From: a bacterium
Lineage (GTDB): Bacteria > Electryoneota > Electryoneia > Electryoneales > Electryoneaceae
Direction of reading: 5' to 3'
Length of the DNA: 33,333 nucleotides
NCBI GenBank assembly: GCA_043801585.1
Contig: JAZDLX010000075.1
Coordinates: 1 to 33,333, forward strand
Part shown: positions 4,960-32,512 of the stretch, in pieces
Layout of the letters: each line of letters begins with the position of its first letter
Position numbering within the stretch: position 1 is the stretch's first letter
Program-made: the position numbers and the translations under genes
The notes under the pieces: model-generated
The model's input: the letters and a program-made list of their open reading frames with translations, nothing else
Told to the model about the DNA's origin: nothing
The model's database searches: none

Positions 4960-5595
4960 CTATTCGGGGCCGCCGGACGGCGTGTGAATCCGGTTCGCGC
5001 GTTCGATGGCCCGGGTGACAGCGCGGCAATCCCGCGCATTTCTCAGGATTTCCAGGCACGCCGGAGTGTCCGCGCAACGGCCGATTTCGGCGAGCATCTG
5101 CAACTGAATCCGTTCATCCTCTTCGGGAGTCAGGATCAGAAAGATCATGCGTGCCGGGAGTCCGTCGAAGCAGTCCCATTCGATTCCCACCGGGCTTCTC
5201 GCGAAAAGCACCAGCGAACGGTCAAGTTTCGGGTACCGTGCATGGGGAACCGCGATCCCATGCACCAGTCCCGTTGCCATCTGGCCTTCACGACGGAGCA
5301 CTCCTTTCAGAATCACCGGTTCGCTGGGCCAGCGCAACATACGGGCAGCGACCTCAACCAGTTCCCGAATTGCGCCTTCGCGCGTGCGAGATTTGAGCTT
5401 GTGAATTTCCGGCACACCCACCATCGCACGGGCAAGGATGGACCGTTTGGAGAAACGGCGCAGCGTCCGCGAGATCAGTTCGACCACCATCACTGCGACG
5501 AACGCGACGGCAATTCCAACTACCATCTGAAAGAGGGTCAGTTGCTCCCCAGCGGCGAGGATTACGCTTGCCGTCAGAATGGGCAGTGCGGTCAT
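4960..5595 (-). CDS. PTS EIIA (Fru/Mtl/Ntr-type) domain protein with N-terminal hydrophobic membrane segment(s)
   Basis: REGQMATGLVHGIAVPHAR (phospho-acceptor His kept) and GIEWDCFDGLPARMIFLILTP. Hydrophobic stretch FQMVVGIAVAFVAVMVVELI near the N-terminus. ATGA overlap with the antiporter stop. Confidence 0.85.
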   Translation of the reverse strand: MTALPILTASVILAAGEQLTLFQMVVGIAVAFVAVMVVELISRTLRRFSKRSILARAMVGVPEIHKLKSRTREGAIRELVEVAARMLRWPSEPVILKGVLRREGQMATGLVHGIAVPHARYPKLDRSLVLFARSPVGIEWDCFDGLPARMIFLILTPEEDERIQLQMLAEIGRCADTPACLEILRNARDCRAVTRAIERANRIHTPSGGPE

Positions 5596-6830
5596 GAACT
5601 ACCCTCCCCTTCAGGTCCCGCGAGGTCAACGCCTTCCAGCTCGTGAATCTCGGTTTCGGGGGGGATTTCACCGGCCAGGTCCAGACCAAGCCTGACGAGG
5701 AACGGTCCCACGGTTTCATTTACAACGACCGTCGCGAGCACGACCGTTGTCAGCAGGATCCCCGCCTCAGGAAACTCATGCTGCACCTCGTAGGCGATGC
5801 CGATGGCGACACCCGCCTGGCAGAGCAATGTCATCCCGAGGTAACGGGAAAGCATGGGAATCTGACTCCGGTACCGCCTCCCGGCGAGCCAGACCCCGCC
5901 CATCTTTCCCACGGTTCTACCAATCAGGTAGACAAGACCCGCAATGCCCATTTTCGGGAGAATGTCGAGGTGCAGAGTGCTGCCGGCGAGCACGAAAAAG
6001 GCGATGTACAGCGGTTGTTCGAGCTGTCGCTGTTCCACGTAGATCAGACGGTGGAGGTAGGAACTGTTCGCCACCGTCGCGCCAGCCGCCATCGCGACAA
6101 GCATCGGCGAAAGGTGCAGCATTTGCCCCAGCCCCGTTCCCAGCAGGATGATGCCGATGGTAACGAGCAGTAGTTCGGACAGTTCATCAAGCCGTGATTC
6201 CCATGCAGAGAGTACCTTTCCGAGCAGGTATCCGAGGGAGATCGAAACGACGAGTTCATAGACTGGCGTTAACAGGGCAATGGCCGGTTCGGTGCCCGCC
6301 TGCATGCTCATCAACCCTTTGATCATCCTGAACAATCCAAGCGCAATCAGGTTGTTCACAGCGACGAGGGCGAGCAAGCGATCCGTCAGAGGACCGCGAG
6401 TGTGGTATTCACGAACAACCAGCAACGTTGCCGCCGGCGCCGTGGCTACCGCCGCCGTTCCAGCGAGCATCGAGAAAACGAGATCGTGCCCAAGCAGCAG
6501 GAAACCGCCAGCCACGACAACGAACACGCAGACCGTTTCGTAGATCGCCAGGCGTAACAGGGCGCGGATGCCCACCCGTTTCAGGTGTGACCACTCAAAC
6601 TCGTTGCCAATCGCGAACAGGATCAACCCCAGTGCGACATCGTTGATGACGCTGAGATTCTCGACCATGCTGCCGGTGATCATGCCGGTACTGGAGGGTC
6701 CAAGGAGGAGCCCGACGAGGAGATAGCCCGTGACACGTGGGATTTTGACCCGGTGCGCGAATTTACCCGCGAGCAGACCGAGCAGGATCGCTGCGCCGAG
6801 ATCAAACAATTCGTTCAGGGCGATTGTCAT
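5592..6830 (-). CDS. Cation:proton antiporter (CPA2/Kef-like membrane domain, no KTN domain)
   Basis: Highly hydrophobic. KIPRVTGYLLVGLLLGPS, ILFAIGNEF, ATAPAAT, FFVLAG, GRTVGK, QAGVAIG. Confidence 0.9.
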   Translation of the reverse strand: MTIALNELFDLGAAILLGLLAGKFAHRVKIPRVTGYLLVGLLLGPSSTGMITGSMVENLSVINDVALGLILFAIGNEFEWSHLKRVGIRALLRLAIYETVCVFVVVAGGFLLLGHDLVFSMLAGTAAVATAPAATLLVVREYHTRGPLTDRLLALVAVNNLIALGLFRMIKGLMSMQAGTEPAIALLTPVYELVVSISLGYLLGKVLSAWESRLDELSELLLVTIGIILLGTGLGQMLHLSPMLVAMAAGATVANSSYLHRLIYVEQRQLEQPLYIAFFVLAGSTLHLDILPKMGIAGLVYLIGRTVGKMGGVWLAGRRYRSQIPMLSRYLGMTLLCQAGVAIGIAYEVQHEFPEAGILLTTVVLATVVVNETVGPFLVRLGLDLAGEIPPETEIHELEGVDLAGPEGEGSS

Positions 6831-7027: not shown

Positions 7028-7319
7028 CATAGGATAAACCCGGCCATCGAGCGGGCCGGGCCACCTGACGAGACCGTTTAACAATTCGAACCGAGAAACG
7101 CCCTCTTAAATCATTTTGAATCCGTCAGCCGACGGATGAAGAACCTATGAGTTTTCATGTGTTTACACTGAACTCAAAGATCCTTCTCGTCCCGAACCGT
7201 CGGGACGTCAGGATGACGCTCTTTTTTAGTCTTGACCCATAGGATAAACCCGGCCATTCCGCCTTCTTCTGCTTGATGGCAGAATACGGCGGACAAGCAA
7301 GCTGGCCGGGCCACCTGAC
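7028..7319. repeat. REP-like palindrome cluster: two CATAGGATAAACCCGG..CCGGGCCACCTGAC units (empty and filled) flanking a TCAT..ATGAC-type doublet
   Basis: Direct repeat 7028-7069 vs 7238-7319, the second with a 40-bp insert. Between them lies TCATTTTGAA..GAAGAACCT / AGATCCTTC..TCAGGATGAC (7111-7217). Confidence 0.8.
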
Positions 7320-7367: not shown

Positions 7368-8522
7368 TCAGATTTCCTGGATCATTGGATCCGCGGGTTC
7401 AAAATAGCGGACGAGGTTCTGCTGTGTCACATAGACACCGAATGCCGTTTGACGGATAATCCTGATGCTGCCGATCCCATCGCACAGGTACTGCCCGATA
7501 CGGTTCTGTCCGCGACGCCAAGCCGGATCGAAACTCGCTTGCATCAGTACAGATGCGGCTTTCTCTGCGAAATCCTTCGCTTTCAAAGCAGGCATCTTTG
7601 GCGAGGCCTCCCGGCGAACCAGGTGGTCGAACATCAGGTCTGCCCCCTCGGTTCCCTTGCGCGGCAGGGCGACCCTGACAGTGCCCAGCGCGATGGCTTC
7701 CTGAAGCACGGTATTGTCCGGCGAAAACAGCACGTCAACCTTCAACAGATCATCTATTGAATTGCTGCGATTGGCGGAAACGGAAACACTCATTCCACCC
7801 ACCTCACCCGCAGCTTTCAGCAGTTCATCATCCGGCGGACAGCTCGCGGAAGGCAGCAGCAGCAGGGTTGGTTTCCACCCCTCTGCTTCAACGGGTGCCT
7901 TCAACGTTACCAATGCCCCAGCGATCTTGCCTACCCATGCAAGATCAAGGTTTTCCGTGGCAATTGCATAGGTCGTGGCAAAGGTGCGATGGTCGCTGTT
8001 ACGGTAAATCGCTTTCATCGAAGCGAAACGGAGAGGAGCGTACGTCGCACCTCGAAGGAAATGGGTGTACCCGCTTTTGCTGGCGATCTCCACCTCCGCC
8101 GCATAGGGCTTTGGCAGAATGAACCAATCCGCCCAGGTGGGCACGGGATCATCGGCGATCATCACCAGTTCGGCGCCCGCCCGCCAGATCGTGTACTGAT
8201 AGTCAGGATCAAAATCGTTGCCGACCAGGTAAACCAGCGGCCTTTTGTGGTGAGCATCGACACGCTTCGGGACGAACTCTTTTAATTTACTGGAGATCGC
8301 TTCCGCTTCCTGCTGTGGGGTCAAGCCTCCAATCAACTCAACACTGGCGCCCTTCGGCAATTTGTCACCAATCAACCCAACTCCGTCGGAATCCAACAGG
8401 AGCGTGATGTCCGTGATACCCTCCCGGCTCGCTGCCTCCGCCAAAGCCTGCGCCCTGAGCAGATGCAAAGAACCATAACTCGAGTCCGTTTTCGCGCGAA
8501 TCCAGACTTTGATCGCCCCCAT
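7368..8522 (-). CDS. Divergent PseG/SpsG-like GT-B fold protein (nucleotide-sugar hydrolase/glycosyltransferase family)
   Basis: ATG 8522 follows AAAGGAGGT. WIRAKTDSSYGSLHLLRAQALA resembles IRADG..IGxGHxxRxxALA. RGATYAPLR, DVLFSPDNTVLQEAIALG and C-terminal DGIGSIRII follow the PseG/SpsG pattern. Confidence 0.6.
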   Translation of the reverse strand: MGAIKVWIRAKTDSSYGSLHLLRAQALAEAASREGITDITLLLDSDGVGLIGDKLPKGASVELIGGLTPQQEAEAISSKLKEFVPKRVDAHHKRPLVYLVGNDFDPDYQYTIWRAGAELVMIADDPVPTWADWFILPKPYAAEVEIASKSGYTHFLRGATYAPLRFASMKAIYRNSDHRTFATTYAIATENLDLAWVGKIAGALVTLKAPVEAEGWKPTLLLLPSASCPPDDELLKAAGEVGGMSVSVSANRSNSIDDLLKVDVLFSPDNTVLQEAIALGTVRVALPRKGTEGADLMFDHLVRREASPKMPALKAKDFAEKAASVLMQASFDPAWRRGQNRIGQYLCDGIGSIRIIRQTAFGVYVTQQNLVRYFEPADPMIQEI

Positions 8523-8640
8523 GTGGACCTCCTTTGCTACGTGCGACGAAATATACTCGCCGGGTTCCGAACGGACAAGGCAACGTTCCAGCATCAGACG
8601 GGAAAGATGATCGAAAGCCACAGATTTCGTTCAACATAAT

Positions 8641-12969: not shown

Positions 12970-13027
12970 GTGAGTTACCAGACAGTATAAAAATTCATGA
13001 GAGTTTTATACTGTCTGGAAACTCACT
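12970..13027. repeat. CCAGACAGT/ACTGTCTGG palindromic element, copy 2
   Basis: GTGAGTTACCAGACAGTATAAAA..TTTTATACTGTCTGGAAACTCAC, a near-perfect inverted repeat; homologous to 3072-3126. Confidence 0.75.
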
Positions 13028-13128: not shown

Positions 13129-13596
13129 CTACGATTCGACCTCGTCTTTCACCGCGAGACCCGTCAAGGTCGGATCAATGCCTGACGCCATGTCCATGCC
13201 ACCCGGCGGTGGTCCCGGCGGTGGCCCCTGAGCCTTCATCTCCTCGATCTTCTGTGCCATTTCCTTGATTGCACTCTCGAGGTCGATGCCCTGTTCATCG
13301 GCAAGCTGCTTGAGCGCATCGGGAGCGTTGTCCGCGAGCGCGGCGGCGTCAAAAGTACCGTCCCTGATGCTGTCGAAGATGCTCTTGAGATAATCCTGAA
13401 CGTTCTGCTGATCGCTCTCGTCGAGGTTCTGGACAGAGCTCAACAGGCTGCCCATCCCAGAAGTTTCAAACATGTCCTGCATCGGGGGAGGTCCCATGCC
13501 TTCAGGTGGTTTCTGCTTCCTGTCATCCGCCTGAAGGCTCTGAAGGTACTGGAGTCTCTGCAACTCTTCGTTGGATTGAATCTCATCGATACTCAT
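13129..13596 (-). CDS. Hypothetical acidic, Pro/Gly-rich helical protein
   Basis: ATG 13596 follows AAAGGAA; protein-like composition with GPPP motifs. Confidence 0.75.
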   Translation of the reverse strand: MSIDEIQSNEELQRLQYLQSLQADDRKQKPPEGMGPPPMQDMFETSGMGSLLSSVQNLDESDQQNVQDYLKSIFDSIRDGTFDAAALADNAPDALKQLADEQGIDLESAIKEMAQKIEEMKAQGPPPGPPPGGMDMASGIDPTLTGLAVKDEVES

Positions 13597-13773
13597 GTCG
13601 GGTTCCTTTCTTCGTTTCTTCTGGAAACGGTTGTCGAGACGGAACAGCCGTCCCGATTCCATCGATCGACCTCGTTTTCCTCCTTTCTCTCTGTTTGTTG
13701 TCTATTGTCAATAAGGAACCCTTGCCTGACTCATCACCGGCGATGGGTACAACCATCACCGGTTTTCCTGCTG

Positions 13774-14622
13774 TCAACCTTTTTTTCGCGCATCCGAAAG
13801 ACGGACCTGGATCCATTCGATCTTCGGTTGATCGTCCATCTCCCGGCCTTTGCCTGGAGGCCTGATGCCCGGCTTCACGTTCCCCGGTGGCGTGAATTCC
13901 TGCTCACCGCCAGCCCGGGCATTGTTTCTTGCGAAGTCCGGAAAATCACCCGGCGGTTTCGGGGGTCGAGGCACCACAATTGTCTCGATCCCAAGGCTGA
14001 ATACATCGCCGGGCAAGACGTGCAACTCGCACTGTTTCGTGGAATCCTGCAGCGGGATGGAGAATTCGAAGACCAAATCCTCCCCCTCCACCTTCATCGC
14101 CGCGTGAAGACCCGGCTCTTCCGGCATTGTGATCACCTCAGGATCGGCGCCCGGATGATCGTAGTACACAATCTGATCCCCGGCCTGCTGGAGTGGCTCC
14201 ATCACCGCTCCCCTCATTTCGGAAAACGATGCAGGTGCAGACCCGCTCGAGTCGTTCATCCCGCCCGGGCCATCCTCCACCATCCTGTAGGCGAAACCAA
14301 ACCTCTTCTCACGTTTGCCTGACGGATCGATCCACAACACCATCCGCCGCGCACCGGGAACGCCCAGGTTTACCGGCCGCTGTACCAGCAGGTAGAAATG
14401 ACTCCTGTCGTTCGCCGCGGAAACAGTCAAACGGTGGGATCGGATTTCAATTCTCGGCAGGGAGACCCAATCCCCGCTTTGTCCATCCACCTGGGGACAC
14501 TGATCCACCCACGTTGAGGTGAGACGGCTTGCCACGCTACTGCCCGGCATCATCATAACCGCTGCGATGCCTGCGATGGCGATCGACCGGCAGTAACGCC
14601 CTACGCTCTTCTTTTCCTGCAT
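13774..14622 (-). CDS. Hypothetical secreted protein
   Basis: Signal-like N-terminus (IAIAGIAAVMMM..SVA), beta-rich core (ANDRSHFYLLV, LWIDPSGK, FEFSIPL) and Pro/Gly-rich tail. Confidence 0.7.
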   Translation of the reverse strand: MQEKKSVGRYCRSIAIAGIAAVMMMPGSSVASRLTSTWVDQCPQVDGQSGDWVSLPRIEIRSHRLTVSAANDRSHFYLLVQRPVNLGVPGARRMVLWIDPSGKREKRFGFAYRMVEDGPGGMNDSSGSAPASFSEMRGAVMEPLQQAGDQIVYYDHPGADPEVITMPEEPGLHAAMKVEGEDLVFEFSIPLQDSTKQCELHVLPGDVFSLGIETIVVPRPPKPPGDFPDFARNNARAGGEQEFTPPGNVKPGIRPPGKGREMDDQPKIEWIQVRLSDARKKG

Positions 14623-22531: not shown

Positions 22532-23647
22532 ATGACGAGCCGATCCAGAATCCCCGTGCACTTTGGCGACGCACCGCCTCCAGCCCCGTTCCGATCACGG
22601 CAACCAAATGCCGTCAGGACCCTGCCGAAGGTGGCCTATGCACTGTATGGCACGTGGTTGAAAATCACCCACCCGTCGCCGCCTGCGCCGATGATTCCAG
22701 CGGCTGACCAGGTGAAACGGCTGGTGGCTGTGCAGCTTGAACGGCTAGGCGATCTGGTGCTGATCGAGCCTGCACTGCGAGCACTTCGCCTTCACTATCC
22801 AAAGGCTCAACGAGTACTGATCGCTCCGCCTGGGGCCGGGGACCTCTATGCCGGTACAGGCTGGGGTGAAATCCTGGCGCCGCAAGCCTTGGAAATCCTG
22901 CGTAAAACCGAGGAAGAGCCCTTCGATCTCGCCATTGACCTGACGGGACGCGTGGAATATCGTATCGCGAAAACCCTGGCATACAGCGGGATTTCACACC
23001 GTATCGGGTACAATCGAGCTGGACGCGGGATCTACCACACGATTCCTCTCCCGTGGCCGGAAATCTCTCTCCCGATGCGCAGAGTCTACCTTGCCCTCGC
23101 ACAGGCGCTGGGTTCGACGATGAGCGACAGCATCCCACGCCTGCCCCGGGGCGACGACCGGCTGCAACGTGGCAGGGACCTGTGGCGCGATCACCGCCTC
23201 AACGCTCCGGTGGTACTTCTCCCCGGTGCTCACCAATCGCAGCAACGGTGGGCACTGGGCAATTTCGCCGCAGTGGGAAGGGCGTTGCGAAAACAGGGTG
23301 TGGAAGTCGCTGTCGTCTGCGGACCAGATGAAGAGGGGTTTGCGGGAGCGCTCGCCCAGGAAATCGAGGTTCCCCTCGTTTCGGGTCCGACGATGAGCGA
23401 GTTGATGGATCTTCTGGCGACGAGCCAGGTCGCCGTTTGCAACAACACCGGACCGATGCACCTGGCGGCGGCTCTCGGCGTTCCAACGATTTCCACCATG
23501 GGGCCGACAATCCCGTGGAGATGGTGGCCCGTGTCCGATGCTCCGACCATTGTCTTCCGCTCAGGATCGCAGGGACCGATCGCCGACATGCGCCTGATCG
23601 ACCCCCTCGAAGTTGCCGCAGCGGTGCTGCATTTGCTGGATGAGTAA
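22532..23647 (+). CDS. Glycosyltransferase family 9 (heptosyltransferase-like)
   Basis: QLERLGDLVL, FDLAIDL, LLPGA..QRW, CNNTGPMHLAAALGVPT, GPT..WWP. ATG 22532 preferred as start. Confidence 0.9.
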   Translation: MTSRSRIPVHFGDAPPPAPFRSRQPNAVRTLPKVAYALYGTWLKITHPSPPAPMIPAADQVKRLVAVQLERLGDLVLIEPALRALRLHYPKAQRVLIAPPGAGDLYAGTGWGEILAPQALEILRKTEEEPFDLAIDLTGRVEYRIAKTLAYSGISHRIGYNRAGRGIYHTIPLPWPEISLPMRRVYLALAQALGSTMSDSIPRLPRGDDRLQRGRDLWRDHRLNAPVVLLPGAHQSQQRWALGNFAAVGRALRKQGVEVAVVCGPDEEGFAGALAQEIEVPLVSGPTMSELMDLLATSQVAVCNNTGPMHLAAALGVPTISTMGPTIPWRWWPVSDAPTIVFRSGSQGPIADMRLIDPLEVAAAVLHLLDE

Positions 23648-23938
23648 AGCCAATCCACGATCGCCGGGTTCGGAGAACCCGGCCTACACTCTCCCTGCCT
23701 CGCCGCACTTTTCACCCCCGCGCAGGCGGGGGTCCAGAGGAAGAATGACGACCCGGGAAATGGACCTTCGGTTCACATCCCGGGCCACCCGCTCGAAATT
23801 GCCGCAGCGGTGCTGCATTTGCTGGATGAGTAAAGCCAATCCACGATCGCCGGGTTCGGAGAACCCGGCCTACACATCTCCCTGCCTCGCCGCACTTGTC
23901 ACCCCCGCGCAGGCGGGGGGTCCAGAGGAAGAATGACG
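23606..23938 (+). repeat. Direct duplication (~145 bp) of the GT9 3' end plus two REP units
   Basis: 23606-23750 vs 23792-23938 differ by two substitutions and two 1-nt indels. A partial third copy lies near 23993-24056. Confidence 0.92.
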
Positions 23939-23947
23939 GTCATACTG

Positions 23948-23996
23948 CTGGATTCCCGCCTTCCCCGACGGATCGGGACAGGCGCAGGAATGACAC
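23948..23996. repeat. ATTCCC..GGAAT (dRS3-like) REP with 20-bp loop insert
   Basis: CTGGATTCCCGCCTT[CCCCGACGGATCGGGACAGG]CGCAGGAATGACAC compared with the empty copy at 30792-30820. Confidence 0.75.
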
Positions 23997-24068
23997 ATCT
24001 CTCCGCCTCCCCACACTTGTCACCCCCGCGCAGGCGAGGGTCCAGAGGAAGAACGAAGGGCAAGGGGC

Positions 24069-24140
24069 TGTAGCCCGGACATACCGGTCCGGGGCTCTTG
24101 TATTAAAAAACCGGTCCCGAACGGTCGGGACCGGTCTACG
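24069..24140. repeat. GTAG-tagged REP doublet (REPIN-like)
   Basis: TGTAG-CCCGGAC..GTCCGGG-spacer-CCGGTCCCGA..TCGGGACCGG-TCTAC, the same architecture as 1591-1652. Confidence 0.75.
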
Positions 24141-28109: not shown

Positions 28110-28541
28110 TCACATGCTTCGAAGCAGACGGCCGAGGGAGAGAAGGTCATCCTCGAGTTTCACAAGAGCCGTTGTCGGATCGTTAAAGTAATCGTCACCG
28201 GTCATGACGTTGCTCGCCGGTTCACGCGATCCTGTCACATAATGGTAGTAGCTAAGGGGACGCAGGCGCGCACGGCTGACGACGGAATCGCGTGTAAATC
28301 CCTTCCCTTCCTTTTCACGGCCTGCATCGATAACCCGCTCGATCAGGGTTTCGGATGCAACGTCAAAACCCTCGACTCGAGCTTTCCAGGTTTCACGGTC
28401 CGTTCGATGAACAGGAAGCAATTCTTTTAAACGGGCGAGTAGATGATCCGCAGGAGCCTCGCTCTCAACAAAATGATGTACCGCATTGCGTATCTTTTCC
28501 GCCAGTGCTTCATCGATGAAGGTCAGGCCAGTTTTTGCCAT
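28110..28541 (-). CDS. Hypothetical protein with a possible degenerate XRE/Cro-C1 helix-turn-helix
   Basis: Strong RBS GGGAGGTG. TRDSVVSRARLRPLSYYHYVTGSREP matches XRE HTH spacing. Confidence 0.7.
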   Translation of the reverse strand: MAKTGLTFIDEALAEKIRNAVHHFVESEAPADHLLARLKELLPVHRTDRETWKARVEGFDVASETLIERVIDAGREKEGKGFTRDSVVSRARLRPLSYYHYVTGSREPASNVMTGDDYFNDPTTALVKLEDDLLSLGRLLRSM

Positions 28542-30023: not shown

Positions 30024-30158
30024 AGTTTCCAGACAGAATAATCCAAGAATAATCCAGACAGTTTAGGTATTCTTTGGAATAATCCAGACAGTTTAGATAT
30101 GCTTTATCTTTAAACTGTCTGGATTATTCAGTCTGGGGTTATTCAGTCTGGATTATTC
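30024..30158. repeat. Tandem-plus-inverted GAATAATCCAGACAG array (expanded member of the CCAGACAGT family)
   Basis: GAATAATCCAGACAGTTTAG at 30047-30066 and 30077-30096; inverted 19-mer at 30111-30129; partial units at 30024-30045, 30130-30144 and 30145-30158. Confidence 0.9.
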
Positions 30159-30332: not shown

Positions 30333-30820
30333 TGAAACCCGGGACTGAAGTCCCGGGCCACCCGACGGCGAAGCCGCTTGAGCCACCCAGTTGCAACTAC
30401 TGTGGCTTTGTTATCCCCTGGCTTGACCGGGGGGGATCCAGTGTTATTCAATTCCCTCTGGATTGCCCGGTCAAGCCGGGCAATGACAATGAGAATGCCA
30501 TTAGTGTGTGACCCTGTCGGTTTAACTGACAGGGTTTACTTGTTCTTATTGACAGAAACCCGATCAGTCGGATGACTGATCGGGTCACTCGGTCGCACAT
30601 CTACATAAAAGTATGTCATTGCGGGGAATCCGTCAGCCGACGGATGACAAAGCAATCTCGATGTTTACACATGAAACCCGGGAATGATCAGCCTTCTCCC
30701 CACGCTTCGGGATTCGGCGGACAAGCGGCCCGGGCCACCCTTCGGGCTTCTCATTATAAAGACCCGACCCTGAAGAGTATGGCAACACTCCCTGGATTCC
30801 CGCTTTCGCGGGAATGACAC
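30333..30820. repeat. Mosaic of at least six REP-like palindromic units from several families
   Basis: 30333-30362 (CCCGGG..CCCGGGCCACC); 30410-30487 (GGCTTGACCGG/CCGGTCAAGCC doublet); 30508-30588 (GTGACCC..GGGTCAC doublet); 30615-30659 (GTCATTGCG..GCAATCTC); 30672-30739 (filled unit); 30792-30820 (dRS3-like). Confidence 0.8.
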
Positions 30821-31964: not shown

Positions 31965-32065
31965 TCAAACTTTCTGATGATACGAACCTACAGGCAAAAC
32001 GGTTTCCCCGTCCAGCGCCAAAGCCGCGCCGGAGGAGACTGAACGTGTGAACTGGGAGTGATTCG

Positions 32066-32512
32066 ATGAGCGCCTACATCTGCACACGAGACGGCTACAA
32101 AGTGAGCGATGAACGGAACCTCCTGGACATCGACGTCATTCATGGATTCATCACCTGCTCCTACTGGGCAACGGGGATTAAACGTGAACGGATGCAACGG
32201 GCGATGGACAACTCGTTCTGCTTCGGGCTCTACGAAGGTGAGACCCAGATCGGCTTTGCGCGGGTGCTCAGCGACCTCTCCGCCATCGCCTACCTGATGG
32301 ACGTGTTCGTGCTGGAGGAATACCGCGGCAACGGGCTCGGGAAGTGGCTGGTGCAGTGTGTGATGGAATATCCGGCCTTCGAACCGGTGCGCCGCTGGGT
32401 GTTGGCGACCCATGACGCCCATTCCCTTTATGAGAAATTCGGCTTCGGCCTTTATGCACCTGCAGACAACCTGATGATGAAATACGACCCGGACAAATAC
32501 ACGAAGGACTGA
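32066..32512 (+). CDS. GNAT family N-acetyltransferase
   Basis: SYWATG, QIGFARVLSD, YLMDVFVLEEYRGNGLGK, LATHDAHSLYEKFGF. Confidence 0.93.
   Translation: MSAYICTRDGYKVSDERNLLDIDVIHGFITCSYWATGIKRERMQRAMDNSFCFGLYEGETQIGFARVLSDLSAIAYLMDVFVLEEYRGNGLGKWLVQCVMEYPAFEPVRRWVLATHDAHSLYEKFGFGLYAPADNLMMKYDPDKYTKD

Follow-up and report, generated by a model that had tools for sequence, protein, structure and literature searches.

The 33,333-nucleotide stretch of DNA analysed here (the window) contains, between a Na+/H+ exchanger gene (5592-6830) and a gene without an assigned name (7368-8621), an intergenic cluster of repeats in which one REP is present twice, once empty and once filled. The empty copy (7028-7069, 42 bp, minus strand) is a GTGG-footed REP with the hairpin proper at 7035-7065 and its foot on the minus strand. 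The filled copy (7238-7319, 82 bp, minus strand) consists of a left portion (7238-7257), which ends at the insertion point AT^CAAG, and a right portion (7298-7319), separated by a 40-bp insert on the plus strand (7258-7297). The insert has outer arms TCCGCC (7258-7263) and GGCGGA (7288-7293), an inner stem (7267-7272 and 7279-7284) around a loop at 7273-7278, TTC before and TAC after the inner stem, and the tail CAAG (7294-7297), all on the plus strand. Between the two REPs lie two further repeats, a degenerate TCA-type (SRM-like) hairpin repeat (7110-7146, plus strand) with the core variant TCCGTC-N4-GACGGA at its tip (7121-7136), and a GTCATCCTGA-type (SRM-like) repeat (7178-7217, minus strand) with a core of a second family, TCCCGA-N4-TCGGGA, at its tip (7190-7205). 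Such tail-less cores replace the 5-base tip of other repeats. The unnamed gene, on the minus strand, encodes 417 residues, is conserved in the family and has no Pfam or NCBIfam match, which is also the case for the window genes at 13129-13662, 13774-14622, 28110-28541 and 31988-32422.

An earlier note on this DNA had read the two copies as one unit and the insert as a two-tier hairpin, and both readings hold. Deletion of 7258-7297 restores the unit with 2 mismatches and is the single best among 20 tested 40-base deletions, while the insert folds as described (-11.2 kcal/mol as DNA, z -4.65, 0/200 shuffles equal). An unbiased junction test, in which removal of core plus 4-base tail gives a 20-mer with 4 exact and 11 one-mismatch matches elsewhere in the genome, also chose 7258-7297 and thus agrees with the best 40-base deletion. 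Both mismatches belong to the empty copy, and the filled copy minus its insert is the commonest allele of its host subfamily. The two copies also have common flanks (CATAGGA... and ...TGAC) that go beyond the family consensus and are not seen together elsewhere, and a local duplication followed by insertion into one of the copies is therefore likely. The insertion point lies 3 bases to the left of that of five other inserts in the same subfamily (ATCAA^G or ATCGA^G). Ten bases within the insert (7271-7280, minus strand) reproduce, exactly and in reverse complement, the ten host bases that lie evenly on either side of the insertion point; the family consensus accounts for 4 of the 10, the odds for the remainder are, post hoc, about 1 in 4096, and no other long copy examined has such an inverted copy.

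In a genome of the same genus (G001) the matching flanking genes are only about 27 bp apart and the entire 432-bp repeat cluster is missing, which makes the cluster lineage-specific and leaves no orthologous empty site by which the event could be polarised there. The only read run found contained a fraction of 0.10 of the words, covering 6639-6825 alone, outside the insert site. The focal locus is neutral DNA within an intergenic repeat cluster, and its value is that of a clean example of a hairpin family.

The host belongs to a repeat family, GAAACCC...GGGCCACC, with several loop subfamilies and 231 pattern matches, some of them due to chance; a scan of the focal genome (G000) gives well over 100 copies. 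On the minus strand the host reads GGTGG-CCCGG...CCGGG, i.e. a GTGG foot 5' of a GC-rich hairpin, and this layout fits the REP design given in the available part of Quentin 2018 (PMC6006769). Host REP A is found at most 800 bases from 5 of the 13 Y1-transposase genes, and three of these five Y1 proteins were scanned, all three passing the RAYT model NF047646; the host is thus a REP of the REP/REPIN-RAYT kind, as far as the portions available of PMC3733652 and PMC6006769 describe it. Empty alleles are the commoner form beside the RAYT genes, and in the two main host subfamilies the empty copies (17 and 13 with strict patterns) outnumber the filled ones.

Other repeats of the same genome were recorded along the way. 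The loop of the same host subfamily also holds longer structured inserts of 33-38 bp with other sequences (C35:6547, C98:57668-57708, C219:308/656 and C62:15642). Five Y1 genes of about 227-241 codons, on contigs C122, C206, C165, C112 and C189, have long imperfect inverted repeats (TIR-type) that differ in sequence each time, and two long near-perfect palindromes with CCAGACAG arms in the window (12970-13026 and 30047-30129) are probably gene-less copies of Y1-type inverted-repeat arms. A tandem composite repeat with a period of 186-188 bp and several REP types is present at the end of a glycosyltransferase gene (23601-24085).

The insert is the long form of a family that consists of TCCGCC-loop-GGCGGA plus a 4-base tail (CAAG, CAGG or CATG). 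The core TCCGCC-N4-GGCGGA is the commonest 6-4-6 palindrome of the genome, with 59 loci as against 0 for the reversed-pattern control. Two 6-4-6 core loci have counterparts in the matching regions of G001, and hence not every core is an element. We surveyed junctions at 216 candidate loci, trying all deletion ends and counting the joined flanks elsewhere in the genome. Some junction was detected at 46 of them (including 22 of the 70 with exact arms), and at 16 loci core plus 4-base tail was the best or tied-best deletion that restored an empty site. With a fixed definition of the element (arms with at most one substitution, tail CA[AGT]G) we obtained 30 matches, compared with 3 in a reversed-genome control. 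By eye, 27 of the 30 were assigned to repeat hosts, while the remaining 3 look like chance. The hosts, which comprise subfamilies A1-A3, B, C, D and E as well as one SRM-like repeat and are entered at several loop positions, are A1 (8 copies), A2 (6, including the focal insert), A3 (1), a GTAG-footed REP (5), a GTCAYCCCCGCG repeat (3), a GTCAGGTC repeat (2), a CCCTRTTGG repeat (1) and a GTCATCCTGA SRM-like repeat (1), and at none of the 27 sites did we detect a target duplication. The positions within the A2 loop differ (five at ATC(A/G)A^G, the focal one at AT^CAAG), which argues for separate events. The occurrence of elements of 20, 30, 38 and 40 bases is attributed to a loop that takes up additional hairpins. 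In host A the base after CAGG and CATG copies is usually changed, while CAAG copies are mostly clean. A genome search with a TC[CA]GCCTTC-type pattern, as the earlier note had suggested, gave 4 matches, all in the focal host family.

The surroundings of the 30 matches were compared with random sites. Having repeated flanks does not discriminate at a 5-copy threshold (28/30 versus 1399/3000) but does so at a 10-copy threshold that was picked afterwards (21/30 versus 223/3000). Comparison of 15 of the 25 core loci in G001 with G000 revealed no same-site pair of empty and filled alleles. The interior of the focal insert, TTCTGC-N-GCAGAA, was considered as a repeat family of its own and rejected, as the genome has one other loose match and the viral contigs have none. 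At one locus in another genome (L114, G028:C9) a core tailed on both sides forms a perfect 24-base palindrome in a host loop.

The earlier note also pointed to a sister insert in a related REP (30688-30725, plus strand). The 38-bp insert is real, but it is degenerate, folds together with its host no better than shuffled sequences (z 0.59) and occupies a different host subfamily (host 30673-30739, GGGA(C/A)TGA^), at TGA^. An empty copy of this subfamily lies at 30334-30362 (plus strand), and near-identical intact copies of the sister in the same host type are present on contig C209 and in G001. The interior of the sister (30697-30712) is a core of the second family, giving a three-level nest. 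At 30629-30644 (plus strand) the tail-less variant TCCGTC-N4-GACGGA forms the tip of a GTCATTGCG-type repeat. The second family, TCCCGA-N4-TCGGGA, has 41 loci in G000, and its cores (e.g. those at 7190-7205 and 24115-24130 in the window) take up the very host positions used by the first family, in some cases followed by the CAGG tail as well.

Outside the focal genome the long form matches 24 viral-contig stretches and, in two other phyla, 12 and 2 genomes out of 301 each, and several of the element copies in other genomes and viral contigs sit in frame in genes. In the viral-contig gene L276 the element is a clean in-frame insertion of 30 bases relative to its empty relatives L278 and L279, and a third relative lacks 39 bases at the insertion site; for the gene at L262 no close empty relative was found. 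In a tryptophanyl-tRNA synthetase (TrpRS) a 9-residue gap relative to PDB 2el7 coincides exactly with the element-encoded peptide. An Obg GTPase with an element-coded peptide was dropped as a candidate insertion, since the peptide leaves no gap in the alignment with solved structures. The base to the left of the element is A in 18 of the 24 viral copies, and in the genome G051 most tailed elements lie in heptamer-like short tandem repeats, after AA (L376-L396). At L382 in G051, elements form a head-to-tail tandem beside a GIY gene that has a tRNA-end duplicate.

The varied targets and the in-gene pair of empty and filled alleles show that the element moves as a unit and that its concentration in REPs is a local feature. 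A discrete, very small mobile unit, as proposed in the earlier note, is borne out by its recurrence at different sites in unrelated hosts, which also disposes of the motif as a fixed part of one long repeat; no target duplication, as likewise proposed, is seen at the focal site or in L276 compared with L278 and L279. The proposed preference for hairpin loops is seen in G000, where 18 of the 30 matches fall within a hairpin in a fold test as against 408 of 2000 random sites, but not elsewhere (about 4/24 viral copies, 2/20 in two other phyla and 4/24 from three other genomes of the phylum, G051, G040 and G018). The element is not a specialist parasite of REP loops, as shown by the copies in heptamer repeats and in frame in genes. 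Taken together, the focal insert is a gene-less copy of a hairpin element of 20-40 bases, placed in the loop of a RAYT-type REP without target duplication.

The genes with which the hairpin is associated point to a possible enzyme. A GIY-YIG gene flanked by the motif, which the earlier note had suggested as something to look for, is present in G000. This genome has four PF01541 matches. One is a protein of UvrC size, two are genes with GTCAT-type hairpins on their flanks, and the fourth is a gene on contig C174 (22618-22854) that encodes a single-domain protein of 79 residues (P0001) scoring above the PF01541 cut-off. Within its locus (C174:22544-22910, L016) the C174 gene starts at the last base of a tRNA-Asn gene and is followed by 8 tRNA bases, a core and the last 28 tRNA bases, such that the core replaces 10 bases after the anticodon; the same layout recurs in relatives with variant cores. 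We selected the 80 best relatives of the C174 protein in named genomes by the protein alone (80 of 97 confirmed); they span Patescibacteria, Bacteroidota, Ignavibacteria and others, and their loci are those of kin, seeded with exact peptides. The strict core is present at 70 of these 80 loci, in 64 cases within 120 bases upstream of the gene and usually inside a broken copy of the adjoining tRNA (at least 64 loci have a tRNA predicted by ARAGORN). A looser core pattern matched 71 of the 80 real loci and 2 of 1600 shuffled ones, and it found nothing at 25 GIY-YIG loci from the phylum whose identity is ≤44%, so that the strict core is absent from these as well. At tRNA genes, related GIY genes of a sister clade, outside the core-bearing one, are accompanied by cores of the second family (L147 and L412). 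No GIY-YIG gene of the second-family clade was found in the G000 assembly despite its 41 second-family cores. At L426 and L435 a long-form element and a second hairpin lie between a tRNA-like 3' end and a small GIY-YIG gene.

Residues Y5, Y16, R26, H30 and E62 of P0001 are kept in 78-79 of 79 relatives; the correspondence with Y6, Y17 and E64 of SsnA was made by motif position and not by alignment to SsnA. The predicted model of P0001 (pLDDT 77.8) is nearest in fold to UPF0213 (1zg2) and Slx1, its atlas neighbours are all small GIY-YIG proteins, and P0001 has no NCBIfam match and no PDB sequence match. In a tree of 105 proteins (4 proteins were skipped for stops or length, and the C15 protein is absent) the SRM-flanked proteins form a clade of their own (16 proteins, support 1.0), separate from the core-bearing clade (81 proteins, support 0.83). 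As far as this tree shows, the core-bearing clade would thus stand apart from the SRM/NTS-flanked cd10448 clade, and our own SRM pattern gave an SRM-like label to 2 of its 81 members. The two small Ssn/SRM-like GIY-YIG genes of G000 with GTCAT-type hairpin flanks are at C15:23000-23931 and C212:12840-13188 (L014 and L015), the former within a tandem array of units of about 100 bp.

Several observations weigh against the link between hairpin and nuclease. The two core-richest of 79 genomes of the phylum both have a close relative, whereas the next six (16-43 cores) have no relative above about 40% identity, with the same outcome when five of the six were searched again with PF01541. Draft genomes are incomplete and tRNA duplicates break assemblies, so absence of the nuclease gene is weak evidence. 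The four closest relatives within the phylum (51-61% identity) have variant cores alone (0/4 strict). The long TTC...TAC form, to which the focal insert belongs, was found at none of the 80 nuclease loci, and conversely a GIY gene near the long form was found at 1 of 20 loci in two other phyla (about 100 bases away) and at none of the 24 viral loci. The focal insert is accordingly tied to the clade only through its arms, its tail and the common host A1 site. Moreover, most cores beside nuclease genes are tail-less; 4 of the 80 loci have a tailed core, with a CAGG that resembles tRNA sequence at two of them. Rather than being a substrate of the nuclease, the core might be a passenger that frequently ends up next to GIY-YIG genes. 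A hydrolytic nuclease by itself cannot join DNA.

The element has defined ends, occurs as empty and filled alleles in many unrelated targets and is associated with a gene family. On the strength of this analysis we give an even chance to the reading that the tRNA-linked GIY-YIG nuclease mobilises the hairpin in trans. In this reading the 79-residue nuclease would recognise and bind the core in single-stranded form and, by analogy with SsnA, make one cut at the 5' foot of the core and another roughly four bases outside the 3' foot. Host repair would then seal the freed or primed piece into a nick in exposed DNA. The 4-base tail would be flank carried along from the donor site. REP loops would be frequent homes in G000 because they are abundant, extrudable and neutral, and filled REPs may have multiplied further together with their host. 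The loop of the element would be exchangeable and could take up other hairpins, giving rise to the forms of 30, 38 and 40 bases.

Four other explanations were weighed. The one that survives best, although we consider it unlikely, is that the tailed element is moved by a different trans factor, be it a further nuclease clade or the reverse transcription of a small structured RNA, with the GIY-YIG genes carrying a domesticated core. This would fit the existence of core-rich genomes without the GIY clade, the rarity of tailed and long forms beside GIY-YIG genes and the often imprecise 3' junction of CAGG and CATG copies. It leaves unaccounted for both the fixed position of the core, 20-60 bases from the gene in several phyla, and the pairing of core families with GIY sub-clades, and as to the RNA route, Rfam has nothing near the gathering score for the element.

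It appears quite unlikely that the hairpin is cut and joined by an HUH enzyme, a possibility which the earlier note had brought up, be it a local RAYT or a Y2 transposase of IS91 type, reading a CTTG or CCTG foot 5' of the stem. HUH enzymes join DNA without leaving a duplication, the genome has 13 Y1 genes with host REP A within 800 bases of five, and in hosts A, B and C, read along the tagged strand, the tail does give CTTG or CCTG 5' of the stem, which with about seven insertion classes is a weak point in its favour. Against it, the strict core is absent from all 80 RAYT-relative loci (the loose core is found in 5, at higher GC), as opposed to 70 of 80 loci of the one GIY-YIG clade; the proteins of this control set share only 28-42% identity with the local RAYT. 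The strict core does lie beside 1 of the 13 local Y1 genes, as a passenger inside a host REP. No RAYT match was obtained at 20 long-form loci, and the targets include SRM-like repeats, tRNA fragments, heptamer repeats and coding DNA without a REP. Scanning metagenomes with a single RAYT query gave no match, and an alignment of five proteins was used in its place. We also dropped a loose host-REP pattern, since its matches, at 40 of 80 GC-rich RAYT loci, were mostly unconvincing. PF04986 (Y2_Tnp) has no match in the genome, nor in any of 14 control genomes. In the IS91 and IS200-IS605 families a hairpin lies beside a tetranucleotide and no target duplication is left; here, in contrast, the tetranucleotide travels with the element, varies and bounds no transposase gene. 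The IS91-type CAAG target mentioned in the earlier note does not apply either, as the focal empty site has CAAG to its right while most empty sites (TGA^AGTC, GT^TCGG, TT^TCGC) are without it.

Spread without a dedicated enzyme, through template switching or patch repair where forks stall or hairpins are nicked, with other copies as the source, is in our judgement distinctly unlikely. The inverted copy of the insertion-point bases within the focal insert suggests synthesis in place, and tail-less cores replace 3-13 host bases rather than adding cleanly. The 5' end is, however, always exactly TCCGCC, the targets have no common flanking homology, and the inverted copy occurs once only, with 4 of its 10 bases predicted by the family consensus. 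Finally, a long ancestral form that was shortened by deletion, or an assembly artefact, is very improbable: the private common flanks do mean that one copy derives from the other by local duplication, but empty alleles outnumber filled ones and are commoner beside RAYT genes, no direct repeat at the left end could guide slippage, the insert unit also occurs in unrelated hosts and in an independent genome, and the different positions in one loop together with the in-gene pair largely refute it.

Returning to mobilisation by the GIY-YIG nuclease, we compared the element with known systems. Its tail reads CTTG, CCTG or CATG on the opposite strand rather than the GT[AG]G or CGTC tag of a REP. It also differs from MITEs, having no target-site duplication and inverted arms that are offset by the tail. 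The element is therefore neither a REP, nor an IS91-type element, nor a MITE, and the nuclease is not a member of the SRM-flanked clade. Elhai et al. in 2008 (Genome Res 18:1484) reportedly treated the small dispersed repeats (SDR) of cyanobacteria. According to the parts available of PMC4390886 and PMC2884548, SDRs are repeats of about 20 bases, possibly mobile, and SDR5 is inserted precisely at a fixed point of a short palindrome. Compared by these descriptions only, SDRs resemble the element as tiny palindrome-linked units with precise insertion, but they belong to another lineage, have HIP1 as target, and no repeat-flanked nuclease gene is named for them in the parts available.

The closest parallel for the enzyme is Ssn (Chenal et al. 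2025, PMC11893778), which, in the part of that paper available, is a single-domain GIY-YIG gene of fewer than 100 residues flanked by its own genome-dispersed hairpin. SsnA is there shown to bind the hairpin on ssDNA only and to cut a few bases outside it, the NTS-ssnA-NTS arrangement is likened to an IS, and mobility of the repeat is put forward as a hypothesis only. The tRNA-linked clade is like Ssn/NTS in pairing a small GIY-YIG gene with a dispersed hairpin and differs in its 16-base core, which is not an SRM, its separate clade in the tree and its location at tRNA genes with partial tRNA duplicates. That repeats can be nested in palindromes is already in print: the accessible sections of Di Nocera 2013 (PMC3733652) describe loop variants of up to 27 bp, REPs within other palindromes, in-frame REPs in genes and CGTC REPs without a dedicated transposase. 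In the nesting described there the inserted unit is a GTAG- or CGTC-tagged REP, while the present unit is smaller, ends in a 4-base tail that varies and is not found flanking RAYT genes. The Rickettsia RPEs, as presented in the same sections (PMC3733652), are likewise palindromic repeats inserted in frame within functional genes; of these, RPE-1 is longer as an insertion and RPE-4 and RPE-6 are CGTC REPs, whereas the present element adds only 10 residues and has a candidate enzyme. The literature that we searched, with limited coverage of subscription journals and supplementary material, holds no account of the hairpin family or of the tRNA-linked clade.

On a wider view, and at somewhat less than even confidence, the tRNA-lodged GIY-YIG genes may be the autonomous members of an undescribed class of mobile DNA, in which each sub-clade would have its own 16-base hairpin, and gene-less copies of 20-40 bases would be excised and set as patches into exposed DNA in many phyla, without either a transposase or a target duplication. 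The route by which very small palindromic repeats (SDR, RPE and CGTC-type) reach new sites is an open question, and a minimal unit of 20 bases with defined ends, empty and filled alleles and a controlled association with a candidate protein of 79 residues makes it testable. If the enzyme is active, it would represent a second family of hairpin-specific ssDNA nucleases beside Ssn. If the wider view is true, these genes would encode the enzyme that has been missing for the smallest mobile repeats known from bacteria, and likewise for palindrome-coded protein insertions of 10 residues.
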